From positions 570,001-602,000 of the forward strand of contig NZ_CP066018.1 in assembly GCF_016127575.1 (NCBI RefSeq): DNA of 32,000 bases, written 5' to 3'. The position numbers were made by a program, and so were the translations under genes. This stretch comes from Cupriavidus necator (GTDB lineage: Bacteria > Pseudomonadota > Gammaproteobacteria > Burkholderiales > Burkholderiaceae). Below the pieces are notes generated by a model. It was not told the origin of the DNA. It saw only the letters and a list, made by a program, of their open reading frames with translations, and ran no database searches. Positions 5,673 through 32,000 of this stretch are shown here, in pieces (within the stretch, counting starts at the first letter, position 1; each line of letters opens with the position of its first letter).

Positions 5673-5679
5673 TCCGGTG

Positions 5680-14375: not shown

Positions 14376-14388
14376 CCGGTCGCCCCGT

Positions 14389-15060: not shown

Positions 15061-15097
15061 CACGACTCCCAAGGCTCGATTTGCAGGATTGGATTGT

Positions 15098-15757
15098 TCA
15101 CGGCTTTCGCGGCGCCAGACTGGCGAGGTAGGTGGCCATCGCCTTGCGGTCCTCCGGCGACGCCGCCGCGGCCACGCTTTTCATCATCCCGGTCGGTTCG
15201 CCGCGCGTGCCGGTGGCAAACGCATCAAACTGCGCCAGCAGATACTCGTAGCCCTGGCCCGCGAGGCGCGGGAACTGGTCGTGCCCCATCAGCTGGCTGC
15301 CATGGCACGCGGCGCAGTTTCCCGAGGCCACCAGCCGCTTGCCCTTCTCCAGCAATCCCGCATCGGGCGTGAAGTAACGGTTGGCGCCGGCCGGCTGCCT
15401 GGCGAAGTGGCCGGCAAGATCGTTGATCTCTGCCTCACTCATCGTCTTGGCCAACGGGCCCATGATCGGATTGGACCGCTCCCCGCTGGCGAACTTGCGA
15501 AGCTGGGCCGCCACGTACGGTGCCGGCTGGCCCGCGAGGCTCGGATAGCCCTGGTGCAGCGAATTGCCCTTGGCACCGTGGCAGCCGATGCAGGCGTCGG
15601 TCACGCGTGGCCACGGGCTGCCGTCGGCGTTATAAGCGGCAGCCGACGCCGTGATATAGCGGTCGAGGCGATAGATCCCCAGGAGGTCGTGGCCGAACCA
15701 GGCGAGCAGCCCGGCGGCAGCGATAGCGGGAACGCCCAGCCATATGCGCTTCTTCAT
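15098..15757 (-). CDS. Dihaem c-type cytochrome (cytochrome c4-like) with N-terminal signal/anchor
   Basis: ATG 15757 follows an AGGAGA SD by 5 nt. Hydrophobic N-terminus MKKRIWLGVPAIAAAGLLAW. Two CxxCH motifs (CIGCH at residues 56-60, CAACH at residues 148-152), each followed by a P-x-LAGQ motif and Met-containing stretches (PIMGP, GMMKS) as in class I/c4 cytochromes. Confidence 0.9.
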   Translation of the reverse strand: MKKRIWLGVPAIAAAGLLAWFGHDLLGIYRLDRYITASAAAYNADGSPWPRVTDACIGCHGAKGNSLHQGYPSLAGQPAPYVAAQLRKFASGERSNPIMGPLAKTMSEAEINDLAGHFARQPAGANRYFTPDAGLLEKGKRLVASGNCAACHGSQLMGHDQFPRLAGQGYEYLLAQFDAFATGTRGEPTGMMKSVAAAASPEDRKAMATYLASLAPRKP

Positions 15758-15766
15758 TTCCGTCTC

Positions 15767-17245: not shown

Positions 17246-17269
17246 AGTGCTTCGCTGTTTCCTGTCATC

Positions 17270-17638
17270 TCATTGCGGGTCGAGCGCAAACCTGCGAACG
17301 CTCTTCCCGCTTCTCATGCTTCTGTGCCGGACAGCCCAGACGAGCCCACGCAGCGCCTGTTGATCGACTTGTTGGACTGCGGCTGTACACTGCTCCAGCA
17401 CCTCCTGCTCCGGGAACAGCATGAGTTCGGCCGCGCTCCCCAATACGAGCGCGATATCGAATGGCGAGCCTGTCGCGAGCGCGTGCCGCAGAAGGCTCGA
17501 CAAGCGGCGTTCGATGGCGGCACCGTCCGCGGCGTCCATTCGAATCCTTGCGACCGATGCCCGGATGAAGTGGAGCAGCTCACTGGAGCCAGGCTGATGC
17601 CCGAAGGCGGTCGTGGTCGAGCAGGAGCTTGACGTCAT
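17270..17638 (-). CDS. Hypothetical protein (122 aa), no recognisable family
   Basis: It fills the 480-nt gap between the ACAD and the amine oxidase on the same strand. ATG 17638 follows GGGAAAG by 6 nt (the track ORF starts at TTG 17656). About three quarters of third-codon positions are G/C by my hand count, lower than neighbouring genes but above non-coding expectation. A competing + strand ORF (17273..17632) exists. Confidence 0.4.
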   Translation of the reverse strand: MTSSSCSTTTAFGHQPGSSELLHFIRASVARIRMDAADGAAIERRLSSLLRHALATGSPFDIALVLGSAAELMLFPEQEVLEQCTAAVQQVDQQALRGLVWAVRHRSMRSGKSVRRFALDPQ

Positions 17639-17725
17639 CGCGGCTTTCCCATGCAAATGGCTGATTGGTCTGGCGCGCTCCAGCCGCCTGCAGCGACGGC
17701 CGGTATCCCGCGCTTGACCGGGCGC

Positions 17726-19015
17726 CTACTCCCGCGCCCACCCATTCTGGTAGAGGCGCCCGGCCAGCACGCCCAACCGCGACGTGAGCACGTAGTTCTC
17801 GCCGTCCTCGATCAGCGCCGAGCGCGCGTCGCGGAACAACTTCTCGATCGGGAACTCGCGCGTCGTGCCGTTGCCGCCGAAGAGCTGAAATGCCTCGTGC
17901 GTGATCTTCATGGCCTCCTCGGTTACGCTGACCTTGGCCTGCGCGGTCGCATAAGGGTGGCTCTGCGGAGACAGTCGCGCGAACGCCAGGCTGCGCCGGG
18001 CGATGGCCCGTGCCATCTCGAGCCGGCGCAGCATCTCGCCCACGCGCAACTGGGTCATCTGGTGTTCCAGCAGCAGCGCCCCGCCCTGCTTGCGCTCATG
18101 GCAATAGGCAAGCGCAAGTTCGAACGCGGCGCGGGCCGCACCGACAAAGACCTGGCACATGTGAGTACCTGCGAACGACCATGTAGAAGCCAGGTTTCCG
18201 AGGTACTCATCCTTCAGCGCGATGGCGAAGCGCTTGGGCACCCTGACGTTATCAAAATAGATCTCGCCCTGGGGCAACGCACGCTGGCCGATCTTGTCCA
18301 GCGGTTTGCCGCGCGAAATGCCAGGCAGGTCGAGCGGCAGGATCAGGCCGATGCCGTTGGTGAACGCGCCGTGCTCATCCGTCCCGTGGAACCCGTCGCC
18401 ATAGTCCGCCGCCATGTAGGCGAGCGCCACCTGTGCCACCGACCCGTTCGACACCCATGCCGAGCTCTGCCCGTTGATGACGATCTCGTCGGCACCGACC
18501 CTGGCGGTCACGTTGCCAACCGGCTGCTTTCCGCCTGCGCTCAGCTCTTCGCGGTAGAGGATCGCGGCATCGGAGCCACGGTCAGGCTGCGTATTCATCC
18601 AGCAACCGATCTTTCCAGTGCACATCTCGATCAGTTCCTGATTGCCGAGCGACTGCGCCATCGTCAGCGGCATGGTCGCAGCGCCGAGCGAAACGGCCAG
18701 ACCCGAATCCCCCCAGCCCAGCTCTTCGCCGATCAGGGACTCGATGCGCACCGCGACCTCCGGCGGGAACTGCGCGATGAGTTGCGGATCGAGCCCGAGC
18801 TTCGCGCTCTCCATCATCGCCGTCCAGTACGGAGAACCCGCAGCGATGACGTCCTCGGGCGCCATGCGGTCAAGCTCCCTGCCGATCGGCCGCAGCACAT
18901 CGCGCGCAAAGCGATGAACCGTCTGCTGAATCGCGTTTTCCTCTTCGCTCAGCGGCGTCTCGAATCCGGTCAGGCCAACTACCGGCAACGCCGCGGTCTT
19001 GTGCAATCGAATCAT
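17726..19015 (-). CDS. Acyl-CoA dehydrogenase family protein
   Basis: The true start is ATG 19015, 5 nt after a strong AGGAGGAG SD (MIRLHKTAALPVVGL...). 429 aa. ACAD N-, middle and C-terminal domains, with ...AFQLFGGNGTTREFPIEKLFRDARSALIEDGENYVL near the C-terminus. The 107-codon extension in the track is rejected. Confidence 0.9.
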   Translation of the reverse strand: MIRLHKTAALPVVGLTGFETPLSEEENAIQQTVHRFARDVLRPIGRELDRMAPEDVIAAGSPYWTAMMESAKLGLDPQLIAQFPPEVAVRIESLIGEELGWGDSGLAVSLGAATMPLTMAQSLGNQELIEMCTGKIGCWMNTQPDRGSDAAILYREELSAGGKQPVGNVTARVGADEIVINGQSSAWVSNGSVAQVALAYMAADYGDGFHGTDEHGAFTNGIGLILPLDLPGISRGKPLDKIGQRALPQGEIYFDNVRVPKRFAIALKDEYLGNLASTWSFAGTHMCQVFVGAARAAFELALAYCHERKQGGALLLEHQMTQLRVGEMLRRLEMARAIARRSLAFARLSPQSHPYATAQAKVSVTEEAMKITHEAFQLFGGNGTTREFPIEKLFRDARSALIEDGENYVLTSRLGVLAGRLYQNGWARE

Positions 19016-19082
19016 TCTGAGTCTCCTCCTGTCATGGAAGCATGCGTGGCGGCTTGCCGCAGATACGGCACGCCCATCGCTC

Positions 19083-19100
19083 ATCGTGTTAGAACACGAT
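19083..19100. promoter_or_regulatory. Inverted repeat ATCGTGTT-AG-AACACGAT (8-bp arms), candidate TetR-B operator upstream of the ACAD gene
   Basis: Read directly, 68-85 nt upstream of the ACAD ATG and just downstream of the TetR-B terminator. It is followed by two copies of CCAAACATA (19102-19110 and 19121-19129) and a short AACAT-N5-ATGTT repeat, all in an AT-richer stretch. Confidence 0.4.
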
Positions 19101-19135
19101 ACCAAACATAGGTCATGTTGCCAAACATACAAGCG

Positions 19136-19162
19136 AAAAAAAAGACAGGGTATTCCCTGTCT
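19136..19162 (-). terminator. Rho-independent terminator downstream of TetR-B
   Basis: On the minus strand: AGACAGGG-AATA-CCCTGTCT, a perfect 8-bp stem with a 4-nt loop, followed immediately by TTTTTTT. It lies 38 nt after the TetR-B stop codon (19200-19202). Confidence 0.8.
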
Positions 19163-19199
19163 CCTGGCGTTGGCACGCAGTAGCGTTGCTTTGTCGCCG

Positions 19200-19883
19200 C
19201 TAGCCGGCCATTTCGGTTGACCGCTCCTTGAATATGATCTGCTCGACAGCGGTCCGATATGCCGCATCGAGCCCGCGCGAGTCACGCTTGCGACGCCCCG
19301 CGCCGACCTGCAGCGCCAGTCCGTCGGCCAGCGCAATCAGCAACGAGGCAGCGTGCAGGCTGTCTGCCGTTTTCAGTTCCGGATTGATCGCCCGCACCAG
19401 TTCCGCAATGCCGCGCGTCAGCGTGTCATACCACTCCTCAAACATCCGCGCGCACTCGGGATCGGTCGATGCCAGCGAAACGAAGTGCCACCACAGCGCC
19501 GAGTCCTTGACATTCCTCGCGTCGCTGAGCGCCTTATCCAGCAGTGCGTTGAGCGACTCGCGCGGCGTGACGCGGCTGTCCAGCGCGCGCTTCAGGTCTT
19601 CGAGATAGGCGTCGATAATCGGCGCCATGATCGCCCGCAGGACGGCCTGCCGGGTGGGAAAGTAGTACTGGAGATTGCTGATGCTAATCCCGGCGCCGAG
19701 GGCGACGGCACGCAGCGAGAATTCCAGGCTGCCGCCCTCGAGCAACAGCTTTCTGGCAACGCGAACGATGGCATTGCGCGTGCGCAAGCCCTGGGCTCGC
19801 AAGCTGTCGGGGTCGGCTCCTGTGGCGGCTGCGCTCGATGCACGCCGCTTCCTGGGGGTGCGCTGCTCCATGGGCACTGTCAT
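19200..19883 (-). CDS. TetR/AcrR-family transcriptional regulator (B)
   Basis: 227 aa. HTH ...IVRVARKLLLEGGSLEFSLRAVALGAGISISNLQYYFPTRQAVL. The start may be ATG 19883 or ATG 19871. Confidence 0.9.
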   Translation of the reverse strand: MTVPMEQRTPRKRRASSAAATGADPDSLRAQGLRTRNAIVRVARKLLLEGGSLEFSLRAVALGAGISISNLQYYFPTRQAVLRAIMAPIIDAYLEDLKRALDSRVTPRESLNALLDKALSDARNVKDSALWWHFVSLASTDPECARMFEEWYDTLTRGIAELVRAINPELKTADSLHAASLLIALADGLALQVGAGRRKRDSRGLDAAYRTAVEQIIFKERSTEMAG

Positions 19884-20052
19884 CCTGTCTGCCTTGATTC
19901 AGGGCTTTTCAGCCCTTTGTAAGGAATCGCGCCAGCGGTAGGCTGGGCGGGCATCATTATATCTGACGCCCGTCGACGCGCGTGGCGCCCGGGTCGCTTC
20001 GGCGGGGGCTTACCTCCTTTGTCCTGATTGCGACGGCAATGATCGGCGAGGC

Positions 20053-21402
20053 CTACGACCGCGCTGCGTAGCGTGCCTTGCGGTTCACCCGATCGTCCAT
20101 CATGTTGGCCACGCCCAGCGCGGAATTGACGGCGCACCATTGCAGCGGTTCGGGCAGCGTCGACGGCGTCCTGTGGTGCAACGCCGAGAGTAGCGGATGC
20201 TCCGCGCCACGTATCCGTTCGGCCAGCAGCAGTCCCATCAACGACTGGGTACCTACGCCATGCCCGGAACACCCGGCGGTATAAAGGATGTTGCGGTCAG
20301 CACCCGCCGCGCCGACCACGGGCAGCGCATCGTAGGCAAGGCTGATGTACCCGCTCCAGCATGACCGGATGGCGACCCCTCCCAGCATGGGAAACCGCTC
20401 ATGCAGCGCCCTGGCCAGGGCACGGTAGGACGCTTCGTCCGGCACGTTCGGTGTCTGCGCACCATAGATGTAGCGCAACCGCTTCGTCGTCAGAACAAGC
20501 GTATTGCGCGCCGTCAGCCGATGGCTTTCCATGGTCCAGTGCGACGTCACGATGCCTTCGCGCCGTGGCCAGCCAAGCGACGCCAGTTGCGCCGAGGACA
20601 ATGGCTCAGTCTCGATTGCCGACACCCGCAGCGGCATTACCTTGTTCCGCAGCAAGCCAAGTTGCGGCGTATAGGCGTTGGTTGCAAGCACCAGGAACGG
20701 CGCGCTCGCGCTGCCCTTCGCGGTCCGCACCCGGACGGTGGGACCTTCGTCCCAGGACAGCACCGGCGTGTTCTCATAGAGCTTCACGCCCGCGCGCAGC
20801 GCCGCGCGCCGCAGCCCCAGAACATACTTGCCGGGATCGAGCGTACCGCCACGAGGGACATGACATCCGAACAGGAACGCCGGCGGGATGCCCCGTGCCC
20901 GCATCGCGGCGTAGTCCAGAAACTCCCCGGGAGAGCCAAGTTGCACGCCGGTACGCATGCTCTTGCGCAGCTTCCTTTCCTGGGACGGATGGACGCCCGC
21001 GCGGATGATGCCCGAGGCGTTGTAGTCGCAGTCGATCGCGTACTCTGCAAGCTTGCGCTCCACGTAGTCGACGCCTTCATCGTAGAAGCGCACGATTTCC
21101 CTGGCCTGCTGGTGTCCCACGCGCTTGAGAAACAGGTCGTACTCCAACCCCTGCCCACCCGCAAGATAGCCCGCGTTGCGCCCGCTCGCGCCGAACCCGG
21201 CGAACTCGCGTTCGAGGACGATCACCTTTGCCCCGCGCGCGGCAAGCTCCAGCGCGGTGGACAGTCCGGCAAAGCCGCCCCCGGCAACGACCACATCCGC
21301 GCTGACGTCACCGTCGAGTTGCGGCTGCAGGTCATCTGGCCGCTCCACCCAGCCTCCAAGTGGCCGATACGCCTGTCCGCCTTGCCAGTTGAACCCGTCC
21401 AT
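20053..21402 (-). CDS. FAD-dependent oxidoreductase, DAO family (PuuB-like); paralog B
   Basis: ATG 21402 follows a GAGGGAGG SD by 5 nt. The track start 21417 is a GTG overlapping the thiolase stop. ADVVVAGGGFAGLSTALELA...LEREFAGFGASGRNAGYL. Colinear with paralog A (2919..4280), including the shared C-terminal tail ...LPEPL(Q/R)W...(D)(D/E)R(V/S)NRKAR. Confidence 0.9.
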   Translation of the reverse strand: MDGFNWQGGQAYRPLGGWVERPDDLQPQLDGDVSADVVVAGGGFAGLSTALELAARGAKVIVLEREFAGFGASGRNAGYLAGGQGLEYDLFLKRVGHQQAREIVRFYDEGVDYVERKLAEYAIDCDYNASGIIRAGVHPSQERKLRKSMRTGVQLGSPGEFLDYAAMRARGIPPAFLFGCHVPRGGTLDPGKYVLGLRRAALRAGVKLYENTPVLSWDEGPTVRVRTAKGSASAPFLVLATNAYTPQLGLLRNKVMPLRVSAIETEPLSSAQLASLGWPRREGIVTSHWTMESHRLTARNTLVLTTKRLRYIYGAQTPNVPDEASYRALARALHERFPMLGGVAIRSCWSGYISLAYDALPVVGAAGADRNILYTAGCSGHGVGTQSLMGLLLAERIRGAEHPLLSALHHRTPSTLPEPLQWCAVNSALGVANMMDDRVNRKARYAARS

Positions 21403-21413: not shown

Positions 21414-22655
21414 TCACTCCTTGCTCAAAATATGGATTGCAAGCGCAGCCTCTTCGACGCCCTGCAAGCCGCCACCGTTCTCCTGAATCGCGTGACGCGC
21501 GCCGCCTACCTGCCGCGCCCCTGCTTCTCCACGCAGTTGGGTGACCAGTTCGTAGAGCTGGCCGATACCTGTCGCACCCAGTGGATGGCCCTTGGATTCA
21601 AGGCCGCCAGACGTGTTGATCGGAATGCGCCCGCCGAGTGTAAATTCCCCGCGCTCCGCAGCCGGCCCACCCTCCCCCAGCGGCACCAGCCCAAGGTTTT
21701 CGGCCTGGATGATCTCGCCCATCGCCGAGGCATCGTGTACCTCGGCCACGTCGATATCCTCAGAGCCCAGGCCGGCCTGCTCATAAGCCTGAAGCGCGGC
21801 GAGGCGGCCGATGTTCTTCTCCGGCTCGTCGATGCGCCGATGCGAAAAGCTGCGGATCACGCTCGCCGCGATCCGGATGCAACGACTGCGATCGGCGCCG
21901 ATGCGCCGCAGACCCTCTTCCGTGCAGAGGATTGCCGCCGCTGCACCGTCCGAGACCGGCGCGCACATCGGCAGCGTGATCGGATAGGTGATCGGCGGCG
22001 CGGCGAGCACCTCTTCGACCGTAAAAGCCTGGCGGAACTGCGAATGCGGGTTGTGCACCGAATGCCCGTGATTCTTCGCCGATATAGCCGCAATCTGGCG
22101 CTGTGTCGTGCCGTAGGTCTTCATGTGATACCGGCACAGGGCGGCATAGATCTTCATGAAGCGGCTATAGGGCCGGTCGGATTCCGATCCCGGCGGCGGC
22201 TCGATGCCTTCCCCCAGCTTCGCCAGCGTCGCGAAGTTTTCCTCGACGCGGGATACGTCCCATCCCGCGTCGAACAAGGCGAACGACCTCGACTTGTCAG
22301 CGACGTTCATCTTCTCCGCGCCAAGTGCCAGCGCGACGTCGCAGCTGCCTGCCCTGAGGTGCTGTACTGCAAGGTGCACCGCCGTGCTGCCGGACGCGCA
22401 GGCATTTTCGACGTTGAACACAGGAATGCCTTCGATACCGACCTTGCTGAATACGACCTGGCCAGGGATCGACAACTGCCCCTGAAGCTGGCCATTGGTG
22501 ATGCCGGCGTAGAAGGCCGCACCGATGGCGTCGGCACTACAGCCGGCGTCCTGCAAGGCGCCGCGTAGCGCGGCACCGGCGAGTCCCTCGATGCTCATGT
22601 CGAAATGCCGGCCGAAGATGGTCATTGCGATGCCGGCGATGTAAATGTTGCTCAT
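21414..22655 (-). CDS. Thiolase-family protein, SCP-x/lipid-transfer-protein type
   Basis: True start ATG 22655 (MSNIYIAGIAMTIFGRH...). Catalytic Cys in VENACASGSTA, and GHPLGATG and ENGGG motifs near the C-terminus. 413 aa. The 79-codon upstream extension in the track is rejected. Confidence 0.9.
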   Translation of the reverse strand: MSNIYIAGIAMTIFGRHFDMSIEGLAGAALRGALQDAGCSADAIGAAFYAGITNGQLQGQLSIPGQVVFSKVGIEGIPVFNVENACASGSTAVHLAVQHLRAGSCDVALALGAEKMNVADKSRSFALFDAGWDVSRVEENFATLAKLGEGIEPPPGSESDRPYSRFMKIYAALCRYHMKTYGTTQRQIAAISAKNHGHSVHNPHSQFRQAFTVEEVLAAPPITYPITLPMCAPVSDGAAAAILCTEEGLRRIGADRSRCIRIAASVIRSFSHRRIDEPEKNIGRLAALQAYEQAGLGSEDIDVAEVHDASAMGEIIQAENLGLVPLGEGGPAAERGEFTLGGRIPINTSGGLESKGHPLGATGIGQLYELVTQLRGEAGARQVGGARHAIQENGGGLQGVEEAALAIHILSKE

Positions 22656-22678: not shown

Positions 22679-24235
22679 TCAGATCTTGCGTTGCTGTCCT
22701 TGCCAGTACTGTTCTCTCAGATCCTTCTTCAACACCTTCCCGACCGGGCTTCGCGGCAGTGCGGCGACGAATTCCACGCTCTTCGGCGCTTTGACCGAGC
22801 CGAGCTTCTGTTTGCAAAGGGCAACGAGCTCGTCGGCGCTTACCTCGTAGCCCGCATTGAGTTCCACCACGGCTTTCACCGCCTCGCCCCACTTCTCGTC
22901 CGGCACGCCGATCACCGCGCAGTCCTGCACAGCCGGATGGGACCAGATCACCTGCTCGATTTCACTCGGATAGACGTTGAAGCCGCCGCTGATGATCATG
23001 TCCTTCTTGCGGTCGGTGATATGGAGGTAGCCCTCCGCATCGAGGTGTCCGATGTCGCCGGTATGCAGCCAGCCGTCGACGATCGCCTCCGCAGTCTTGT
23101 CGGGCGCCTTGTAGTAGCCCTTCATGACGAGGTCGCCGCGCACGCAGATCTCGCCGGTCTCGCCTTGCGGCAGAACCTCGCCGTGCTCGCCCATGATCTC
23201 CACACGGATGAGCGGGTTGGGACGGCCGACCGAGGATAGCCGTTCGTCGGACGCCAGTTCGCCGCCGACAAAATGCTCGGCCGGCGTCAGGTAGGAGATC
23301 GACGCCGGGGCCTCGGTTTGACCGTAGCCGCCGGCCATGATCGGGCCAAACACCTCGATAGAGCGCTTGAGCTTCTCTACCGACATGGGCGCAGCACCAT
23401 AAAGGAAGTACTTGAGCGATGAGAAATCCTGTTTCCCGATCCCGGGAATGTCCAGCAACCGGTAGATCACCGTCGGCGGCAGGAAGAGCTCCGTGACCCG
23501 GTGCTTCGCAATCGCACCGATCAACGCTGCCGGGTCCGGCTTCGGCAGCACGACCACCGTACCGCCGCGCGCAGTGCAGGGCAGCGACAGCATCCCGGCG
23601 GTATGCGTCATCGGCGCGGCGGCGAGATTCACCGGGCGTTCGTCCCCCTGGTAGGGGAACGCCATCATGAACTGCGCGAAGTACGCCTGGTAAGCGCGGT
23701 GCGCGTTCATTACGCCCTTGGGTGCTCCGGTCGTCCCGCCCGTTGCCGAAAGGGTCACGACATCGTCCATGTCGTAATCGATGAGCGGCGCGCTCGAGGC
23801 CTGGCCCTCGCTCCAAGTAGACAGCGACGGCGCCCACGGCAGCGCGGCATCGATACACACCCAGAGCCTGACCTTCGGCAGTCGGGGACGCAGCGTCTCG
23901 ATTACCGATGCGAACGCTTCCTGGAAGAACAGCACTTCGCAGTCGAATGCGTCAAGAATGAACTGGTTCTCCTCCGGCGCGTTGCGCCCGTTGACGGGGA
24001 TGTACGCCATCCCCGCTCGCCATAGCCCCAGCGCACAACTCCAGGCAGTCACGTCGTTATCTGCCCAGACCGCTCCCTTGGTTTCCCTGCCGAAGCCTTC
24101 CGCCAGCAACCCGTTGGCGATGCGGCAGGAAAGCTCGCCAATCTCCCGGAACGAGTAGCTGCGCTCGCCCTGGATATAGGCAATGCCGCGGGGATTGATG
24201 CGCAACCCGCGGTCAAAATAATCAATGATTGCCAT
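22679..24235 (-). CDS. AMP-dependent acyl-CoA synthetase/ligase (ANL superfamily)
   Basis: 518 aa. AMP-binding signature LSATGGTTGAPKGVMNAH, then YGQTE, GDIGHLDAEGYLHITDRKKDMIISGGFNVYP and a C-terminal ...LPRSPVGKVLKKDLR. GAGGA SD 9 nt upstream of ATG 24235. Confidence 0.9.
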   Translation of the reverse strand: MAIIDYFDRGLRINPRGIAYIQGERSYSFREIGELSCRIANGLLAEGFGRETKGAVWADNDVTAWSCALGLWRAGMAYIPVNGRNAPEENQFILDAFDCEVLFFQEAFASVIETLRPRLPKVRLWVCIDAALPWAPSLSTWSEGQASSAPLIDYDMDDVVTLSATGGTTGAPKGVMNAHRAYQAYFAQFMMAFPYQGDERPVNLAAAPMTHTAGMLSLPCTARGGTVVVLPKPDPAALIGAIAKHRVTELFLPPTVIYRLLDIPGIGKQDFSSLKYFLYGAAPMSVEKLKRSIEVFGPIMAGGYGQTEAPASISYLTPAEHFVGGELASDERLSSVGRPNPLIRVEIMGEHGEVLPQGETGEICVRGDLVMKGYYKAPDKTAEAIVDGWLHTGDIGHLDAEGYLHITDRKKDMIISGGFNVYPSEIEQVIWSHPAVQDCAVIGVPDEKWGEAVKAVVELNAGYEVSADELVALCKQKLGSVKAPKSVEFVAALPRSPVGKVLKKDLREQYWQGQQRKI

Positions 24236-24363: not shown

Positions 24364-25497
24364 TTACAGATGCGAAACCGTCGCACGAGCCAGCCCGCGC
24401 TGCTCGAGGAAGCCGAGCAGGTAGCGGTGTCCGAAGGCCTTCGAGCCGGATGCGAAGCCGACCTTTGCGGTGTCGCCGTCGAGTAGTTTGATGACGCCTG
24501 CCGTCTGGATAGCCCCGGTGGCGATGTATGGCGTGGTCCCATGCACGGTCGCCCGCACCGAAGCGACCTGACCGCGGCCGATGGCGAAATCGACGGTGCG
24601 CTGCAGCGTAGTGCGTTCCCTTGGCGGCATGGCCGGCGTGGTCGAATCAACGATCTGCTTCAGCACCGCGTCCTGCTGCTCGCGGGGCAGGTGCTTGTAC
24701 TCTGCTTCCCACTTCTTGCCCAGCGCATGCACTGTCTGCATCGCGTTGTTGTCGTAAAAACCGACACTGGAGATGCAGCTGCGTACGCGCGGATCGTTTT
24801 CGAAGTAGACCGGCAGCGACGTACCGCCCCACGGCAGACAGAACACCGGTTGCATGAAGGCAGGATCGACCACATTGAACGACGCATCCGCCGCATATGG
24901 CACCAGCTTCTTCTCCCAGAGGTAGCAAGCCTCGTGGCGATAGCCTTCAAAGATCGTCGCGGTCGAACCCACGCTCACGCCGGCACCGCCGCTACGCGGG
25001 CCGCGCGCCAACGTCGCGGTTTCCAGGGCATCGACGCCGGGTGTCTCCAGCGCCAGCTCCGCGGCAATCTCGGCGAACGTGTACATGTAGGCATTGGACG
25101 GCGACAGCAGCAGCCCGGCCTGCCGGTACAGGTCGCCGAATTGATCGCGCGCCCGGCGGATGTGCGGCTGCTCGCCCGTGGTGTCGAGGTAATGGCATCC
25201 CGCCTTGAGCGCCGCTTCGACGCCAACGAGCCCGACCGTGGAGAATGGCCCGACGGTGTTGCATACCACCCTCGCGCCGCGGAATGCATTCACCAGGGCA
25301 TCGACGTCATGTTCCGCCTCGATGAGTTCATAGTTTGCCGATTCCAGGCGCACGACACGCTGTGCCATCATTTCCTTCGCCCGGCCTGCGTTGCGCGCCA
25401 CGGCCGTAAAAGGGATGCCCTGGTCGATCAGCCAGTCCATGATCAACATGCCGGTGTAGCCGCTTGCGCCATAGACGACGACGGGGTGCTTTGCCAT
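24364..25497 (-). CDS. Saccharopine-dehydrogenase-like NAD(P)-binding reductase family protein
   Basis: ATG 25497 follows an AAGGAGA SD by 6 nt. N-terminal Rossmann MAKHPVVVYGASGYTGMLIMDWL. The 377-aa length and layout fit the saccharopine dehydrogenase-like / trans-acting enoyl reductase-like family. The substrate is not inferable. Confidence 0.8.
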   Translation of the reverse strand: MAKHPVVVYGASGYTGMLIMDWLIDQGIPFTAVARNAGRAKEMMAQRVVRLESANYELIEAEHDVDALVNAFRGARVVCNTVGPFSTVGLVGVEAALKAGCHYLDTTGEQPHIRRARDQFGDLYRQAGLLLSPSNAYMYTFAEIAAELALETPGVDALETATLARGPRSGGAGVSVGSTATIFEGYRHEACYLWEKKLVPYAADASFNVVDPAFMQPVFCLPWGGTSLPVYFENDPRVRSCISSVGFYDNNAMQTVHALGKKWEAEYKHLPREQQDAVLKQIVDSTTPAMPPRERTTLQRTVDFAIGRGQVASVRATVHGTTPYIATGAIQTAGVIKLLDGDTAKVGFASGSKAFGHRYLLGFLEQRGLARATVSHL

Positions 25498-25589: not shown

Positions 25590-26570
25590 CTATCGCCTGT
25601 CCGGGCCGTCGTCCTGCAACGGACCCGCCATTGACATCAGCAGCGGCCGCGAACCGTTCGCTAGCACTGCAGTCAGGGACTCCTGCCCTGCGCGCTGCGT
25701 AACCGAGAACGTCTTGCCGCCGTCCTTGCTGTCGAGTACGGTCCCGGCCATGCCGACGACGACGATGCGGCCGTCAGCAAGCTCCGCGATCCCGGTCAGC
25801 GATTGGGTGGTATGCGAGTCCACGCGCTGCCATGTCTTACCGTCGTCGCTGCTGCGGTACAGGTGTCCTCGCATGCCGCAGACCAGAAGAGAGCCGTCGG
25901 GAAGTGAGTGCCCGTACCACAGCGAGCCGTTGTCGCCAGTGGTCGACGCCTGCCACGACTTGCCTCTGTCGGCGGAGCGGAAGATGGTGCCGCCTTCGCC
26001 AGCGATGAAGAGCGATCCGCGGCCGGATCCGAACATGTGCAGTAGGTGACGGTCCGCGTTTTCACCCGCCTCCACCTTGATCTCGGACCAGGTCCGGCCG
26101 GCATCGCGTGTTTCGATAGCCCAGCCGTACAGCCCTACGGCGATGCCATGCTCCGGACTGTCGAAGTAGAGCGAAAGGATCGGCTGCTCTGCGCCCCGCT
26201 CGGCACGCAAGAGCATCCACGTCTCGCCGCCATCCTGTGTGCCAAGCACAACGCCATCGTGCCCCGCCGCATAGCCGCGCCGCGCATCGATGAACTGAAC
26301 GGAAGTCAGCAGCGAGCGGACCGGCACCATCCTTGCTTGCCGGAACTTGATGCCGTCATCAGAAAGGAGGATGACGCCGTGGTCGCCGACGGCGACCACG
26401 CGGTTGCCGGCACGCGCAGACGCCAGCAGCGGTGCGGCGACCGCATTGGACACCTGCCGGGCCGGCTCCAGGGTCGGCCACGGAGCTGCGGCAGCGGTCT
26501 CCACCGCCCGCGACGGGCACACCACGCCCAAGGCGATCGCGACAACAGGTAAAAATCGGTGCAGGTTCAT
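25590..26570 (-). CDS. Exported BNR/Asp-box repeat beta-propeller protein (Ycf48/photosystem-II-assembly-factor-like)
   Basis: Signal peptide MNLHRFLPVVAIALGVVCPSRA. Five Asp-box-like repeats read directly: TQDGGETW, TRDAGRTW, SADRGKSW, SSDDGKTW, SKDGGKTF. 326 aa. Confidence 0.8.
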   Translation of the reverse strand: MNLHRFLPVVAIALGVVCPSRAVETAAAAPWPTLEPARQVSNAVAAPLLASARAGNRVVAVGDHGVILLSDDGIKFRQARMVPVRSLLTSVQFIDARRGYAAGHDGVVLGTQDGGETWMLLRAERGAEQPILSLYFDSPEHGIAVGLYGWAIETRDAGRTWSEIKVEAGENADRHLLHMFGSGRGSLFIAGEGGTIFRSADRGKSWQASTTGDNGSLWYGHSLPDGSLLVCGMRGHLYRSSDDGKTWQRVDSHTTQSLTGIAELADGRIVVVGMAGTVLDSKDGGKTFSVTQRAGQESLTAVLANGSRPLLMSMAGPLQDDGPDRR

Positions 26571-26594
26571 GGGAGATTGACGCCTACTTGCGTC

Positions 26595-28973
26595 TCAGTG
26601 CTTCAGGATTTCCGGCATGCGCACTGGGCCGCGCCGGGGAAAGAACTTCTCCAGCACCGCCGCGAACGCGGGCAGGAGGGTGATGGCCATGACCATGTTG
26701 ACGAGGAACATGAAGGTCAGCAGAGCTCCCATGTCGGCCTGGAATTTAAGGCTCGAGAACATCCAGGTCGCCACACCGACCGAGAGCGTAATGGCCGTGA
26801 ACACGGTCGCCAGCCCTGTCTCCTTCAGCGCGACCGCAAGCGCGTCGGTGAACGCAAGACCGTTTGCCAGTTGTACCTGCAGGCGGTTGTAGATGTAGAA
26901 GGCGTAGTCCACGCCGATGCCGACCGCGAGCACCATCACCGGCAGCGTCGCCACGGTCAGGCCGATCTCAAGCTCCTTCATGAACCAGTAGCCAATCCAC
27001 GTGGCCACGGTCAGCGGCAGGCAGCACGCAACCATCGCCCGCCAGTCCCGATACACAAGGAAGACCAGAATGAGGATGGCGGCGTAGACGTACAGCATCA
27101 TCGGCAACTCGCTGGCCTCCAGCACTTCATTCGTGGCTGCCTGGACGCCAGCATTGCCGCTTGCCAGCCTGACCGTGACGCCATCAAGCCGGTTGGACTC
27201 GCGGAACTGCTTGACCGCCGCCACCACGGTCTTGATCGTCGTGGCGCGGTGATCGGGCAGATAAAGGTTGACGCCTTGTACTCGGCAGTCGCTCGACGAA
27301 AGCCCGGCGATGCGGTTGTTCACGCCCTGGAACTGCGAGCCGAGCCCGCGGGGGTCCCGCGTCACGGTGGCCATCTTCGGACTGCCTTCGTTCATGCCGG
27401 CGTTGTAGAGTTTGAGCTGGGCGGCCAGCGAATCGGTGGACACCACGCCGGGTACGCTGCCCATGCGCCAGGCGAAGTCGTCGACGAACAGGAACTCGTC
27501 GGCGCGGGAGCAAACCTCGCCATGGCGATCGGGCGTGGCCTCGAACACCACGGTGAGCCAGTCCAGGCCGACGTCGAAGCGGCTGACGATCGCGGCGACG
27601 TCCAGGTTGTAGCGGGAATCCGCGCGCAATTCCGGCGCCCCGGCCTGGAGACTGCCCACGTGCCTGTCCTGGCTCTGCCAGAACGCAAGGCCGAAAACCA
27701 CTGCGCCGGCGACGGTCACGATCAGTGCGTTCCGCGGCTGGGCGATCCGGGCCACCGCCCCCAGCCATCCGCTATGACTCTCGCGCCGCGCCAGCGCCCG
27801 TTTCGCGAACTCAGGCGTGAACCGGAAGTACGACGCCGCCACCGGCAACATCATCAGGTTGGTGACGATCTTGTAGCCCACGCCGATGGCCGCGGTGATC
27901 GCCAGTTCTCGGATCATCGGGATCGGGATGAGAATAAGCGTGACGAAGCTCGCCAGCGCGGTGATCAGCGCCAGCGATCCGGGAATCAGCAGGCCGGTGA
28001 AGCTGCGCCGGGCGGCAATGGCGGAGTCGGTACCCTGGGCGACCTCGCGGACGATAAAGTTGATCTGCTGGATACCGTGTGAGACACCGATCGCGAACAC
28101 CAGGAACGGCACCAGGATGGCGAGCGGGTCAAGCCCATAGCCCAGCAGGTGCAGCGTGCCGAACTGCCAGACCAAGGACACGAGCGAGCAGCCGAGCGGC
28201 AGCAGGGTCAGGCGCACCGACCGGCAGTACCAGTAGACCGCCAGCCCGGTGAGCAGGAAGGCGATGCCGAAGAAGCGCGTCACGTCCGCTCCGCGGTCGG
28301 CAATGTCGCCGATCTGCTTGGCGAAGCCGATGATCTCGATCTCGACCTGGTCGTTCTCGAACGGGCGCCGGATCTTTTCCTCGAGCAGCCGGTTGAACTG
28401 GATATAGTCGAGCTTCTTGCCCGTGCGGGGATCGACGTCGGCCAGTTCGGCGGTGATCAGGGCGCTGGACTGGTCGCGTGCGACCAGGGTCCCGACATGG
28501 CCGCCGGCCATGGTGCGCTGACGCATCTTGCCGATGACATCGGCGGAGAGCTTTTCCGGCACGATATCCCCGCCTGCCACCGCCTCTGCCCGGAAGCCGT
28601 CCTCGGTGATCTCGGTGAAGAAGACATTCGGTGTCCACAGCGACGTCACGCTGGTGCGATCTACGCCCGGAAGATAGGTGACGGCCTCGGTCACCTTGAG
28701 GACCTGCGTAAGCGCCGCCGCATTCCAGACATCGCCCTTGCGGGCATGCACGGCAATGGTCAGCCGGTTGGCACCGAAGAGCTTGTCGCGGAACTGCTCG
28801 AAGGTCTTGATGTACTCGTGGCCTTGCGGCAACTGCTTCTCGAAGCCGGCTTCGAGGTGCAGCTTCGCGCCGAGCACGCCCATCAAGGCGGTGAATCCTG
28901 CCAGTGCGAGCAGGAAAGGAAGGCGGTGCCCGAACAGGGCCGCTTCCAGACGGGTTATCAAGCGTGAAAGCAT
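26595..28973 (-). CDS. RND-superfamily permease (MMPL/HpnN-like, about 790 aa)
   Basis: 792 aa with two repeated halves. Each half has a large periplasmic loop followed by a cluster of TM helices (e.g. ...FFGIAFLLTGLAVYWYCRS... and ...VYAAILILVFLVYRDWRAMV...). The ATG (28973-28971) overlaps the DUF1302 stop by 1 nt (TAATG). Confidence 0.9.
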   Translation of the reverse strand: MLSRLITRLEAALFGHRLPFLLALAGFTALMGVLGAKLHLEAGFEKQLPQGHEYIKTFEQFRDKLFGANRLTIAVHARKGDVWNAAALTQVLKVTEAVTYLPGVDRTSVTSLWTPNVFFTEITEDGFRAEAVAGGDIVPEKLSADVIGKMRQRTMAGGHVGTLVARDQSSALITAELADVDPRTGKKLDYIQFNRLLEEKIRRPFENDQVEIEIIGFAKQIGDIADRGADVTRFFGIAFLLTGLAVYWYCRSVRLTLLPLGCSLVSLVWQFGTLHLLGYGLDPLAILVPFLVFAIGVSHGIQQINFIVREVAQGTDSAIAARRSFTGLLIPGSLALITALASFVTLILIPIPMIRELAITAAIGVGYKIVTNLMMLPVAASYFRFTPEFAKRALARRESHSGWLGAVARIAQPRNALIVTVAGAVVFGLAFWQSQDRHVGSLQAGAPELRADSRYNLDVAAIVSRFDVGLDWLTVVFEATPDRHGEVCSRADEFLFVDDFAWRMGSVPGVVSTDSLAAQLKLYNAGMNEGSPKMATVTRDPRGLGSQFQGVNNRIAGLSSSDCRVQGVNLYLPDHRATTIKTVVAAVKQFRESNRLDGVTVRLASGNAGVQAATNEVLEASELPMMLYVYAAILILVFLVYRDWRAMVACCLPLTVATWIGYWFMKELEIGLTVATLPVMVLAVGIGVDYAFYIYNRLQVQLANGLAFTDALAVALKETGLATVFTAITLSVGVATWMFSSLKFQADMGALLTFMFLVNMVMAITLLPAFAAVLEKFFPRRGPVRMPEILKH

Positions 28974-30919
28974 TAGAAGGAGGTGGTCATGCTGAGGGAG
29001 ACAAAATCGCGGTCGCGCAGCAGGTTGCTGCCGCTACCGCCCCAGTTGTGCGTGTAGTCGAGGCGCATCTTTGTCTCCGGCTTCGTCTTGAAGTCGAGGG
29101 TCGCGCCGATCACTGCGGCGCCCGCGCCCCGGATGAAGCCAGGCAGCGCCGTGGCCGAATAGCCTCCGATGCCTTGCATGACGGCGATGTCCGGTGACAG
29201 CGATGCCCGCGTGCCGAAGATGTTGGGATAGGTCACCGAGGCTGCCAGCACCATCCCCGCCGACAACTTGGTGGGCAGCGTGTAGTCGGCGGTGACCGCA
29301 TACGGAATCCCGGCGTTGAGCCTGAGCTTCGGGTAATACGCCAGCGCACCTTCCGCGGTGATCGTGCCTTCGGACGCGCCCAACGCGCGCAGCAGCCAGC
29401 CAAACGAGCCCGAAGGCGACATGATGTGGATGCCGGTCAGGTGGAGCTGATAGTGCTGCGTGTCGATCGCCCCGCGGCAACTGCTTCCGACCGGCTTGAC
29501 CGCAAAATCGGCCAGGGCGTTGCAGTAGTAGGGGTTGGCCGGATCGATGACCGTGGTCGGATCGATGGCGACGCTGTCCCGCGGACGGTACGACAGCTCG
29601 GTGCCGATCGCCCATTCGCCAACCTGGAAGTTGTACGAGAGGCCGAACAGGTCGCGGTTCTTGCCGTAGTCGAGGGACGCCTGCCAGCCGAACGGGTTGC
29701 TCGTCGTGTTGACCACCTGGTAGCTCACGAACGGCACCTTCTCGCTGTAGTGGTAGTAATAGAGGCCGAGTTCGTTGCCGCTGTCGGGGAACTTGTAGCG
29801 CATCGCCATCCCACCTTGCCCGTTGTTGCTCGGATTGTTGTCCGGGCCGCGCGGGATGAAGGTGCCGGTTCCGACCAGGGGCCCGACCGGATTGGTATTG
29901 GGGTTCGCCAGCTCCCCGGTGCTCAGGCGGCGGTTGTAGGGCATCCCGGTCGCGGGATTGATGCCGACGATCCGGGTCCCCGTGTCGCCGATCGTGCCGG
30001 TGGGAAGCGGGGCCAGCCCCGACGCAGCCAGCGCGCCATTGACGGCTGAAGTCGGGATATAGAAGCCCCGTCCGCCCTTGCCGAGGAAGTCGCTGGTCGA
30101 AAAGAAGGTCCCGGGCGCGTCGAACTTGAAGCTGTTCCACTTCCACTGGTAGAAGGCCTCCAGGCCGAGGTCCTTGCCGAGTGAAGTGCTCGCAGAGACC
30201 ATGGGCGCGGGGATGAACAGATTTTTAAGCGGCGTTCCCGGCTGGTGCGCGGACGGCAGGTAGATCGCGTTGATCGCGTTGATACCGCCCGGGATGTAGA
30301 GGTTTTCACCCCAGTTCAGCACCTGGTTGCCGACCCGGACACGCGCCTGCTGGTCGCCGACGTCGAATTCCTTGGTGATGTAGGCGTCGAGCAGACGCGG
30401 GTCGCTGGTGGCGAAGTTTCGCGCATCCGAGTCGAGATCGGTTCGTCTGGTGTGGGCGGTCGCAAAGTCATAGTTGACGACGCCGCGCACCAGCCCGCTC
30501 CACCCGTTGGTGCCCTTGACATAGAGGTCGCTGGTCCACTGCGCATTGGCCGAAACCGGCTGCCAGCGCTTGTAGTTCAGGTTGCCGTCGTCCTGATTCA
30601 GGCGCAGCGTATCCAGGTTCGACGAGAAGACAGACGGGTTACTTTTCTGCAGCGGCGTAGGCGCGTCGCCGACACAGCCGCCGTTGTCGTTGCCGACAAA
30701 GCTGCAGTTCGTTTTCGACGTTCTCATCGCTGCACCAAACGAAACCGTCGAGTCGAAGGCTACCGCCCAGCCGTTGTCGAGCGTCCACTGTGCAGCGTAA
30801 GCCGAGCCGGCATCCGCCATCGCCAGCAGGCCTACGATTACCGAGCGGGCCAGCTTCCGTTCCATCCGCATCCCCGCGGCGGCTTGCGCCGCCGCTGCTG
30901 CAACATCACGCAGTTTCAT
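28973..30919 (-). CDS. DUF1302-family outer-membrane beta-barrel protein
   Basis: ATG 30919 follows a GGGGAGA SD by 5 nt. Signal peptide ending ...LLAMADAGSAYA/AQW. 648 aa, rich in Gly/Asn/Tyr with alternating beta-strand patterns. C-terminal ...FVSLSMTTSF with terminal Phe, the OMP signature. The family assignment is from sequence recollection, not a search. Confidence 0.8.
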   Translation of the reverse strand: MKLRDVAAAAAQAAAGMRMERKLARSVIVGLLAMADAGSAYAAQWTLDNGWAVAFDSTVSFGAAMRTSKTNCSFVGNDNGGCVGDAPTPLQKSNPSVFSSNLDTLRLNQDDGNLNYKRWQPVSANAQWTSDLYVKGTNGWSGLVRGVVNYDFATAHTRRTDLDSDARNFATSDPRLLDAYITKEFDVGDQQARVRVGNQVLNWGENLYIPGGINAINAIYLPSAHQPGTPLKNLFIPAPMVSASTSLGKDLGLEAFYQWKWNSFKFDAPGTFFSTSDFLGKGGRGFYIPTSAVNGALAASGLAPLPTGTIGDTGTRIVGINPATGMPYNRRLSTGELANPNTNPVGPLVGTGTFIPRGPDNNPSNNGQGGMAMRYKFPDSGNELGLYYYHYSEKVPFVSYQVVNTTSNPFGWQASLDYGKNRDLFGLSYNFQVGEWAIGTELSYRPRDSVAIDPTTVIDPANPYYCNALADFAVKPVGSSCRGAIDTQHYQLHLTGIHIMSPSGSFGWLLRALGASEGTITAEGALAYYPKLRLNAGIPYAVTADYTLPTKLSAGMVLAASVTYPNIFGTRASLSPDIAVMQGIGGYSATALPGFIRGAGAAVIGATLDFKTKPETKMRLDYTHNWGGSGSNLLRDRDFVSLSMTTSF

Positions 30920-30949
30920 GCCTGTCTCCCCGTGGTTCTCTTTTTTGGC

Positions 30950-32000
30950 TTATCGTGTGGTGAACCGGCGCAGGCCGTCCGGCTCGAAGGTCTTCTCCTT
31001 CAGGCGCCCTTCCCTCGCGGCGAGCCAGTCAGGCTCCTTGTGGCCGGCGACGACTCGGTCGAGCACGGCGCGGCGGGTCTGGTGGTCATAGCTGGTATTG
31101 GCCGCCCAGACGCAGGCCGGCACTTCCCAGGCCATGTAGGGACCCATCTCGGTGGTGCGCCAGACCTTGCCCTGCGCGTCGTACATGTCCTCCACCAGGA
31201 TCGTCCACGTGTCCTCGTCGATGTAGAACACGCGCTTGGGGAAGGTATGCCGCATGCCTTGCTTGAGCGTGGCCTCGACCACCCACATCCGGTGCAGCTC
31301 ATAGCGCGTCAGGTCGCGGCTGAGGAACTTCGGCTTGACGACTTCATCGACCTTGTTCGCCGAAGAGTTGACCCGGTACGTGTTGTAGGGCACGTACATC
31401 TCCTTCTTGCCGGCCAGCTTCCAGTCATAGCGGTCTAGTGGGCCGTTGAACTGCATGTACTGGTCGACGGTCAGCAGGTTCTCGGTGTTGAGCTGCGGGG
31501 CGTCGTACTGGTATGTCGGCGCGCGGCGCACGCGGCGCTGGCTCGCGAAGTACAGCCAGACGTCGTTGGCCTCGGAGAACTTGTACTGCGTCAGGGTGGC
31601 ATCCCCCGCGATCGAGGGCGGGCTGGTAAACGTGTTGAGGTACAGGCTCTCGATGCCGCGGGCGTCGTCGACGCCCTTGTTCGACGGCGACCACATCGGC
31701 GACATCTGCCATTCCTGCTGGCCAAGCGGCTCCCCAATGCTGTCGGTGCCCTTCGGCGGGATGTAGCCCGCATAGCTCATCTGGAATCCCTCTCCTTTCC
31801 AGTGCAGCTTGTGGTTCCACATGGCTTCGGCGCCGTTCTGCGGAATCGGGAACGGCACGGCGGCGCCGATCGCCTCGGCGAGGTCCTGGCCGTTGGCGCC
31901 AAGCTTCGCCGTCGTTGCGTTCTTCTTCGTCCGCTCGTAGAAGAAGTCGGGGAAACCGCAAGAACGGTGGGTCGGATAAACATCCATCCGATAACCCGGG
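30950..32000 (-). CDS. DUF1329-family periplasmic protein (LolA-like fold family), N-terminally truncated by the window edge
   Basis: Stop TAA at 30950-30952. The frame stays open from the first Met (31987) to the window edge (...PGYR-MDVYPTHRS...), and no signal peptide is present in the visible part. The gene therefore starts beyond 32000. The sequence style (YPTHRS..P.FFYE.TKKNA...DRYDWKL.GKKEMYVPYN) matches my recollection of DUF1329. Confidence 0.8.
   Translation of the reverse strand, partial: PGYRMDVYPTHRSCGFPDFFYERTKKNATTAKLGANGQDLAEAIGAAVPFPIPQNGAEAMWNHKLHWKGEGFQMSYAGYIPPKGTDSIGEPLGQQEWQMSPMWSPSNKGVDDARGIESLYLNTFTSPPSIAGDATLTQYKFSEANDVWLYFASQRRVRRAPTYQYDAPQLNTENLLTVDQYMQFNGPLDRYDWKLAGKKEMYVPYNTYRVNSSANKVDEVVKPKFLSRDLTRYELHRMWVVEATLKQGMRHTFPKRVFYIDEDTWTILVEDMYDAQGKVWRTTEMGPYMAWEVPACVWAANTSYDHQTRRAVLDRVVAGHKEPDWLAAREGRLKEKTFEPDGLRRFTTR

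Follow-up and report, generated by a model that had tools for sequence, protein, structure and literature searches.

We analyzed a 32,000-nucleotide stretch of Cupriavidus necator DNA (contig NZ_CP066018.1, positions 570,001 to 602,000), here called the window, and in particular a four-gene envelope module at its far end. The four genes are consecutive and lie on the minus strand. They encode a LolA-like periplasmic DUF1329 protein (30950 to 32000), a DUF1302 outer membrane β-barrel of 648 amino acids (aa) (28973 to 30919), a 792-aa RND permease of the MMPL type, closest to HAE3 (26595 to 28973), and an exported Ycf48-like BNR/Asp-box β-propeller of 326 aa (25590 to 26570). The DUF1329, DUF1302, and BNR proteins have signal-like N-terminal sequences. 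The initial annotation had described these genes as encoding a periplasmic DUF1329 protein, a 648-aa barrel ending in Phe, a 792-aa MMPL-type RND whose ATG overlaps the barrel gene stop, and an exported propeller with five Asp boxes. The open reading frame (ORF) coordinates and the Pfam searches agree with that description throughout, including all four domain assignments. The only caveat is that the first gene is truncated by the window end.

The window contains the C-terminal 349 of the 454 codons of the DUF1329 gene. The ATG at 31987 in the ORF list is an internal Met codon, and no stop codon lies between it and position 32000. We used L001, the source-genome locus on a 4.05-Mb chromosome (GCA_051903385.1), to look beyond the window end. 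There, the full gene (8606 to 9970) encodes 454 aa. Therefore, the start codon, the signal peptide, and about 105 N-terminal codons lie beyond position 32000. The N terminus in L001 is a signal peptide, MRYKTLFLSVTLAFGGAAYA/AAS. DUF1329 matched PF07044 with 406.2 bits (E = 2e-121) and, as a second match, the LolA_like family PF17131 with 51.4 bits (E = 1.3e-13). The AlphaFold2 model of the full-length protein had a pLDDT of 90 and a pTM of 0.90. Its best Foldseek matches were Porphyromonas gingivalis LolA3 (9tp6; TM score, 0.83), 4z48 (a "DUF1329 family protein" from JCSG), 3bk5, and 3buu, with a Foldseek probability of 1.0 for LolA3, 3bk5, and 3buu. RseB, MucB, LolA, and LolB were weaker matches. 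On this model, DUF1329 is predicted to have a LolA-like fold, an open β-sheet with a hydrophobic groove, as the initial annotation had stated for the family.

The DUF1302 barrel matched PF06980 with 410.9 bits against a cutoff of 23.2 (E = 1.4e-122). Its AlphaFold2 model (pLDDT, 91.2; pTM, 0.86) most resembled AlgE and the Occ (OprD-family) channels. The best Foldseek matches were AlgE, OccK2, and OccAB, with E values of about 1e-10, target-normalized TM scores of 0.5 to 0.58, and identities of 7 to 10%. However, the DUF1302 protein is about 200 aa longer than these channels and has large inserts at about residues 67 to 120 and 259 to 367. The 2026 ECLIPSE study found the same likeness for a Pseudomonas aeruginosa DUF1302 protein, and DUF1302 and AlgE/Occ fall into separate sequence clusters (PMC13499233). 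A sequence search of the PDB returned nothing for the barrel or for DUF1329, and fold comparison alone gave matches. The barrel ends in ...MTTSF, and its junction with the RND gene reads TTC TAA TG. Therefore, the last residue is Phe, and the stop codon shares one base with the RND ATG. This TAATG overlap (28971 to 28975, minus strand) links the two genes by translational coupling. A terminal Phe codon (TTC or TTT) was present in every barrel orthologue tabulated (81 loci).

The RND permease matched Pfam MMPL with 80.5 bits against a cutoff of 20.5 (E = 1.5e-22). Its best NCBIfam model was HAE3 (TIGR00921), at 130.7 bits, under the cutoff of 351.9 for that model. The HpnN models scored 41.7 bits (TIGR03480; cutoff, 751.85) and 24.1 bits (NF052374; cutoff, 1100), and the MmpL (HAE2) model TIGR00833 scored 83.5 bits (cutoff, 874.7). 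The protein is thus placed neither with the HpnN equivalogs nor in the MMPL subfamily. The same holds for HAE1, for which NF000282 scored 17.7 bits (cutoff, 1250) and TIGR00915 scored 17.6 bits (cutoff, 940); overall, the HAE1 permease models gave 17 to 34 bits against cutoffs above 900. A strict-threshold hydropathy scan found nine segments. The relaxed scan found eleven peaks and a weaker TM6-like stretch, in the 1+5/1+5 pattern typical of RND proteins. The two periplasmic loops are each about 190 aa long by hydropathy and look too short for an AcrB-like docking domain.

PDB sequence matches of the RND were remote and partial, and the best was MmpL3 (E = 2e-6), over one transmembrane half. 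An invariant GVDY motif in the C-terminal transmembrane bundle (D689/Y690, window positions about 26906 to 26911) aligns with both D-Y motifs of MmpL3, which we take to be its proton relay. The pseudosymmetric site in the N-terminal bundle (residues 298 and 299, window positions about 28079 to 28084) is an invariant Ser-His (GVSH) in 12 of 12 aligned homologues. Such a pairing of Ser-His with Asp-Tyr would make the relay of this RND asymmetric relative to that of MmpL3.

The propeller matched PF14870 (PSII_BNR/Ycf48) with 72.1 bits against a cutoff of 27 (E = 6e-20), and its PDB matches were the Ycf48 entries 5ojr and 2xbg (E of about 4e-20). Five Asp-box-like motifs lie at residues 111, 154, 199, 240, and 281; the strict pattern covers three of them and a relaxed pattern the other two. 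The Ycf48 equivalog model NF010237 gave 72.9 bits, below its cutoff of 326. The protein therefore has only its fold family in common with Ycf48.

We found no HlyD/membrane fusion protein (MFP) family and no OEP/TolC family among the window genes scanned with Pfam, in agreement with the initial annotation. No MFP or outer membrane factor (OMF) gene lies in the 8.6 kb upstream of the module in L001, so that no such pair begins just beyond position 32000 in the same operon. Going upstream from DUF1329, a 437-bp gap is instead followed by co-directional RidA and PhyH genes, and then by a divergently oriented amine oxidase/cytochrome c pair and a gene for an M23 peptidase. At the related loci with full flanks, neither HlyD nor OEP was among the families matched by at least two of the 118 flanking ORFs on the same strand within about 4 kb of the module. 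However, HAE3/MMPL-type RNDs such as HpnN normally work without an MFP and a TolC-like channel (PMC6394551). The absence of both is therefore no anomaly in itself, which weakens the initial interpretation.

HpnN and MmpL3/MmpL5 are likewise RND permeases without an MFP or a TolC-type channel, and they move lipid outward from the inner membrane. HpnN differs in that it has no dedicated barrel, LolA-like, or propeller partner. The module shares with the HAE1-type pump AcrAB-TolC the RND superfamily, the use of proton motive force, and an envelope-spanning assembly. However, it has no MFP or OMF, its periplasmic loops are short, and a porin-like barrel stands in the place of TolC.

We then surveyed the conservation of the four genes. 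A pattern scan with one genome per species gave 80 loci with RNDs 59 to 90% identical to that of the window, in Burkholderiales, Rhodocyclales, Nevskiaceae, and a few other metagenome-assembled genomes (MAGs). Six-frame ORFs of 86 loci, comprising these 80 and six copies of the source locus, were searched with the window proteins. The order DUF1329, DUF1302, RND, BNR was plain in 74 of the 86 loci and was also found in 2 with an extra fragment or a second copy. Among the remaining 10, eight are cut by a contig end and two lack an adjoining DUF1329 gene. Every complete copy among the 80 genome loci has the same order, and this synteny, for which a check had been proposed at the outset, far exceeds what chance would give. 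The T[AG]ATG overlap of the barrel and RND genes is kept in 15 loci, which belong to a Cupriavidus and Oxalobacteraceae clade except for one Nevskia locus. In loci without the overlap, the median gap is about 60 bp.

The two loci without an adjoining DUF1329 gene are L028 of Massilia phosphatilytica (4000 to 6100) and L068 of Burkholderia sp. Ax-1724 (3450 to 5900). Both have the barrel, RND, and propeller genes, with a porin gene upstream in place of DUF1329 in L028. A frameshift or masked sequence was ruled out as the cause, because tblastn found nothing and the sequences contain no Ns. DUF1329 is therefore truly absent beside these two modules. A Rhodocyclaceae MAG (L058) has a second, far more divergent RND-propeller pair (14723 to 18349, minus strand) 4 kb downstream of the main module, with no barrel or DUF1329 gene of its own in view. 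Among homologues with RNDs about 60% identical, DUF1329 is about 53% identical and the barrel about 40%, which indicates very unequal evolutionary rates. These rates would fit a fast-evolving barrel that is exposed to cargo or at the surface.

More distant relatives on plasmids, with RNDs about 39% identical, have the order DUF1302-DUF1329-YCF48-MMPL or two divergent pairs. Because these relatives keep the pairs in another order or in divergent operons, the constant unit is two pairs, the barrel with the LolA-like protein and the propeller with the RND. Relative to this Ame-type order, named after the system described below, both pairs are flipped in the lineage of the window. The module is found on megaplasmids and chromids (plasmid matches H1 to H25; L088, L089, and L091), in up to five places on one replicon. 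These include P. aeruginosa megaplasmids from clinical isolates. The L089 copy is bordered by transposase genes of IS1380 and Tn3. The RND and DUF1329 queries each returned more than 7,000 sequence clusters among the matches listed.

Judged by its composition, the module is a C. necator copy of an already published and widespread system, the four-component envelope system of the AmeABCD type. AmeABCD of Castellaniella defragrans 65Phen was described by Puentes-Cala and Harder in 2018 as a "tetrapartite RND transporter" in its own HAE3 sublineage (PMC6394551). It consists of the same four families: DUF1302, DUF1329 of the LolA superfamily, a COG4447 Ycf48-like protein, and an RND, which in AmeABCD is of the HAE3 type. 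The likeness is one of family and size, with 605, 451, 316, and 787 aa in AmeABCD and 648, 454, 326, and 792 aa here. AmeABCD also lacks an MFP and an OMF, and it lies inside a catabolic island for a hydrophobic substrate. However, its gene order is barrel, DUF1329, propeller, RND, whereas the order here is DUF1329, barrel, RND, propeller, and its context is monoterpene genes rather than amine and acyl-CoA genes. Deletion of ameABCD lowered both tolerance to and growth on hydrocarbon monoterpenes and increased Nile Red accumulation, which was interpreted as loss of export (PMC6394551).

The same four families have been linked by fitness data. Price et al. found that DUF1302, DUF1329, COG4447 BNR, and COG1033 RND genes are cofit in Shewanella, Kangiella, and Pseudomonas (10.1101/072470). 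The sets cofit by random barcode transposon site sequencing include Sama_1588 to Sama_1591 of Shewanella amazonensis, Psest_1122/1123 with Psest_1923/1924 of P. stutzeri, and PP_0765/0766 with PP_2018/2019 of P. putida. In these sets the pairs can sit at separate loci, matching the picture of two submodules, although their order or linkage is unlike that of the C. necator genes. The Pseudomonas DUF pair is under a LuxR-type regulator, whereas the gene string here ends with a TetR gene, and the phenotypes reported for these sets concern Tween 20 and fatty esters, not amines. Thompson et al. found that growth on Tween 20 specifically requires all four P. putida homologues and growth on butyl stearate three of these, and that none is required on the free fatty acids (10.1101/2020.07.04.188060).

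The Foldy study used AlphaFold-multimer to predict barrel-DUF1329 and DUF1329-propeller-RND complexes and spoke of a "novel transport system" (PMC10866462), and the same contacts were predicted by AlphaFold-multimer in PMC13499233. Suvorova and Gelfand assigned all four to regulons for aromatic compounds in Betaproteobacteria (PMC6449761). A 2026 proteomics paper put DUF1329, YCF48, and MMPL proteins in a "nanopod" cluster. The proposal in the initial annotation of a distinct trans-envelope machine for hydrophobic cargo is thus an already published one (PMC6394551, 10.1101/072470, 10.1101/2020.07.04.188060, PMC10866462, and PMC6449761) and not a new inference. Our analysis adds the gene order flipped in this lineage, the architecture of two pairs, a conserved link to periplasmic amine oxidation, and confident monomer models. 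A search for later structural or biochemical studies under other names surfaced only the Ame paper, and we found no study that resolves the complex. A search for C. necator H16 locus tags with the prefixes H16_A081 to H16_A086 gave no expression or fitness matches.

The genes that follow the module on the minus strand bear on its possible cargo. The first co-directional gene downstream encodes a DUF5938/saccharopine-dehydrogenase-like NAD(P) oxidoreductase (24364 to 25497), and a DUF5938 gene also adjoins the module in Cupriavidus, Massilia, Pseudoduganella, Paraburkholderia, Burkholderia, and Caballeronia. It is followed by genes for an AMP-binding acyl-CoA ligase (22679 to 24235), which is a conserved neighbor, and an SCP2-type thiolase or lipid-transfer-like protein (21414 to 22655; 413 aa as called in L001). 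Next come a DAO-family FAD oxidoreductase of the amine- or amino-acid-oxidizing type (20053 to 21402) and a TetR/BetI-type regulator (19200 to 19883), the last gene of the string. These assignments come from Pfam, with NCBIfam agreeing for the ligase, the thiolase, and the DAO-family protein. Intergenic gaps in the string range from -1 to 169 bp. Reading the coding strand from the window end, we found a single strong terminator-like hairpin (19165 to 19140), just past the TetR gene; a weak six-pair terminator-like site lies inside the RND gene. Because of this single strong site and the small gaps, the module probably heads a nine-gene unit, consisting of its own four genes and the five just listed, from the DUF5938 oxidoreductase gene to the TetR gene.

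Beyond this string, the minus strand encodes a flavin amine oxidase with a twin-arginine translocation (Tat) signal (15767 to 17245) and a cytochrome c (15098 to 15757), recognized by Pfam and by the twin-arginine N terminus. A second, paralogous pair lies upstream of the module, outside the window (4414 to 6639 in L001), so that such pairs bracket the module. The twin-arginine N termini of the two oxidases read TQRRQLL and LTRRRLL, and the cytochromes have signal anchors. Both pairs are therefore predicted to be periplasmic dehydrogenase pairs, and presumably they resemble periplasmic amine dehydrogenases of the NicA2/CycN kind. NicA2 (5ttj) is a true but distant homologue of the oxidase (E = 1.5e-24), and the best PDB match is the "monoamine oxidase" 8p84 (E = 1e-86). 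A proposed homology of the pair to P. aeruginosa SphC/SphB was dropped and is kept as an analogy only, since SphC is called an FMN-linked oxidoreductase (PMC11893366).

In 24 of the 80 loci, from more than 10 genera, the module has flavin amine oxidase genes beside it, mostly together with a cytochrome c gene, and a single locus can have as many as three copies. An amine oxidase would be expected near about 1% of random genes by a rough reckoning. In the remaining loci, the largest neighbor clusters were AraC regulators (11 and 8 loci), aldehyde dehydrogenase (9 loci), and class III aminotransferase (9 loci). Further clusters, each in 5 loci, were amino acid permease, methylamine dehydrogenase heavy chain with a MauD-like redoxin (also 5), and penicillin amidase. 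Altogether, an amine-, aldehyde-, or amide-processing gene lies within 8 kb in about 47 of the 80 loci, a count made without a matched random control. The association of the module with acyl-CoA and amine-oxidizing genes, which had been put forward as an argument for substrate acquisition, is thus real and conserved. However, it does not separate acquisition from efflux for tolerance.

We suggest that the four proteins may act as two submodules. The outer membrane pair would be the AlgE/Occ-like DUF1302 barrel and the soluble LolA-fold DUF1329 protein. The inner membrane pair would be the proton-driven MMPL/HAE3-type RND permease and the Ycf48-like propeller seated on it. In this scenario, DUF1329 would dock on the propeller-RND pair, cargo would pass into its hydrophobic groove, and the LolA-like protein would serve as a shuttle or a bridge to the barrel. 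Delivery to the barrel would then release the cargo to the outer membrane or to the outside. The system may thus work as a substrate homeostasis or tolerance valve that is coexpressed with the catabolic genes. We favor this outward, proton-driven hand-off of a membrane-toxic hydrophobic amine tentatively, with somewhat less than even confidence. As the most likely cargo at this locus, we propose a hydrophobic amine that acts on membranes, or an amide or aldehyde akin to it, which the neighboring genes would degrade. This proposal is drawn from the gene neighborhood, because Tat amine oxidase/cytochrome c, aminotransferase, methylamine dehydrogenase, aldehyde dehydrogenase, and amidase genes adjoin the module.

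Such a route would resemble the Lol pathway (LolCDE-LolA-LolB) in its logic, with an energized inner membrane extractor, a LolA-fold periplasmic carrier, and an outer membrane acceptor. However, the extractor here would be an RND rather than an ABC transporter, and the acceptor a large β-barrel rather than LolB. DUF1329 is also twice the size of LolA, with the LolA-like fold in its C-terminal part, and its closest structures are the noncanonical LolA3, 4z48, and 3bk5. The Lol cargo is lipoprotein, whereas that of the module is presumably a small hydrophobic molecule. No Lol genes lie near the module, and its context argues for a cargo other than lipoprotein.

We favor the outward direction because energy enters only through the proton-driven RND at the inner membrane and because LolA-fold carriers take their cargo from energized extractors. 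In addition, the characterized relatives HpnN and MmpL export lipids, and the D-Y motif of the RND aligns with MmpL3. The MmpL3 and MmpL5 PDB entries were deposited as exporters, and HpnN, an HAE3 relative, shifts lipid from the inner membrane toward the periplasm, as summarized in PMC6394551. The AmeABCD data also point to efflux and tolerance.

Several points weigh against the outward hand-off of an amine. The growth defects on Tween 20, butyl stearate, limonene, and phenanthrene fit uptake equally well. The AlgE/Occ-like barrel, as modeled, would be uninformative on direction. NPC1, a eukaryotic RND relative, moves sterol inward with the soluble carrier NPC2, and membership in the RND superfamily therefore does not force export. 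A strong cell-autonomous defect on esters in pooled fitness assays disfavors a shared secreted function and fits uptake and tolerance alike. About 40% of the surveyed loci have no amine-type neighbor within 8 kb, and the link to amines comes from neighborhood only.

Uptake is a plausible but less likely alternative. The barrel would admit a poorly soluble substrate, and DUF1329 would ferry it across the periplasm, either to the RND-propeller pair or to the amine dehydrogenases there. The RND would then insert it into the inner membrane or pass it through. Such a transfer would resemble that from NPC2 to NPC1, in which a soluble carrier hands its cargo to a protein of the RND family. The module heads or sits within catabolic gene strings in many genera, and the adjoining oxidases are predicted to be periplasmic from their Tat signals. 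P. putida mutants do not grow on Tween 20 or butyl stearate and do grow on the free fatty acids (10.1101/2020.07.04.188060), which is compatible with either direction. An ameABCD deletion strain grows poorly on hydrocarbon monoterpenes and normally on oxygenated ones; however, it is also more sensitive to limonene even when acetate is present and accumulates more Nile Red (PMC6394551), and these data were read as export. Growth of a Delftia DUF1329 deletion strain on phenanthrene was impaired, as cited in PMC13101534. However, no importing bacterial RND is known, and a hydrophobic molecule enters the inner membrane without needing energy there. Inner membrane permeases of the APC and MFS families are encoded beside several copies of the module, and because of these separate permeases the RND is not obviously an importer.

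A narrower form of this idea concerns the flipped-order lineage, in which the module might serve specifically to acquire hydrophobic amines and hand them on. The amine would be delivered by the barrel and the LolA-like carrier to Tat-exported periplasmic dehydrogenases, either the flavin oxidase with cytochrome c or enzymes of the methylamine dehydrogenase type, with the RND-propeller pair working inward or as a loader. We regard this as unlikely. If true, it would give the first bacterial RND working in an NPC1/NPC2-like direction and a new Gram-negative envelope route for lipophilic nitrogen compounds.

A role in envelope biogenesis is quite unlikely. Here, the module would export an endogenous lipid or cell wall component, or support outer membrane vesicles (OMVs) or nanopods, and would set hydrophobic access or tolerance indirectly. 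Price et al. proposed export of a cell wall component from pleiotropic phenotypes (10.1101/072470), and proteins of the DUF1302 and DUF1329 families have been detected in nanopod/OMV preparations of Delftia (PMC3110197). The HpnN and MmpL relatives also export endogenous lipids. However, there are often several copies per replicon, many of them plasmid-borne, with up to five places on one plasmid, and each copy has a different catabolic or regulatory setting (TetR, AraC, and aromatic-compound regulators; PMC6449761). Such varied contexts are typical of substrate-specific accessory modules and not of housekeeping biogenesis. No lipid biosynthesis genes are conserved beside the module.

Finally, it is very improbable that the RND is an ordinary efflux pump that borrows an adaptor and a TolC-like channel from elsewhere, with the DUF1302/DUF1329 pair as an unrelated neighbor such as an esterase (an idea for the DUF pair raised by Thompson et al.; 10.1101/2020.07.04.188060): the weak Pfam ACR_tran match (36.4 bits, in the transmembrane region only) and the label "efflux RND transporter permease subunit" that the NCBI annotation pipeline (PGAP) gives to homologues are set against the low HAE1 scores, the short loops, the strict linkage of the four genes across 80 loci and their cofitness when unlinked (10.1101/072470), barrel and LolA folds without hydrolase features, and the translational coupling of the barrel gene to the RND gene.

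The family is large, plasmid-mobile, and found in pathogens and biodegraders. The C. necator copy offers a handle on it, being in a genetically tractable host and tightly coupled to a TetR regulator and periplasmic amine dehydrogenases. With this coupling, the candidate cargo comes down to hydrophobic amines, and the choice between uptake and efflux becomes directly testable. Since both the module and the idea of a distinct trans-envelope transporter are in the literature, the locus is worth more as a test case than as a discovery.

Other features of the window were noted. The region of about 45 kb around the module (window positions 78 to 6339 and 19200 to 21402) looks like an island of duplicated amine-oxidizing genes. 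The duplicates are PhyH (78 to 914, and 6902 to 7735 in L001), DAO (2904 to 4280 and 20053 to 21402), and TetR (5680 to 6339 and 19200 to 19883). The island also has a third amine oxidase, without a signal (4368 to 5672), and an MFS transporter (1442 to 2875). Genes for a short-chain dehydrogenase/reductase (SDR), an APH-family phosphotransferase, and an acyl-CoA dehydrogenase lie close together on the minus strand (12366 to 14474 and 17726 to 19336). We take this grouping to recall the lva or ACAD10-type route for 4-hydroxyacyl-CoA. Between the APH and cytochrome c genes lies an ORF of 227 aa (14389 to 15072, minus strand) for which Pfam gave no match. An ORF with a weak metallo-β-lactamase-fold match (E = 1e-7; 8062 to 8997, minus strand) adjoins a porin gene (6704 to 7948). 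Amid the catabolic genes lie the pntAB transhydrogenase genes (PntB, a 4TM segment, and the PntA dehydrogenase domains; 9296 to 12334, minus strand), and a pntB gene is also found upstream of an MMPL relative on Comamonas plasmid pBHB (L087).

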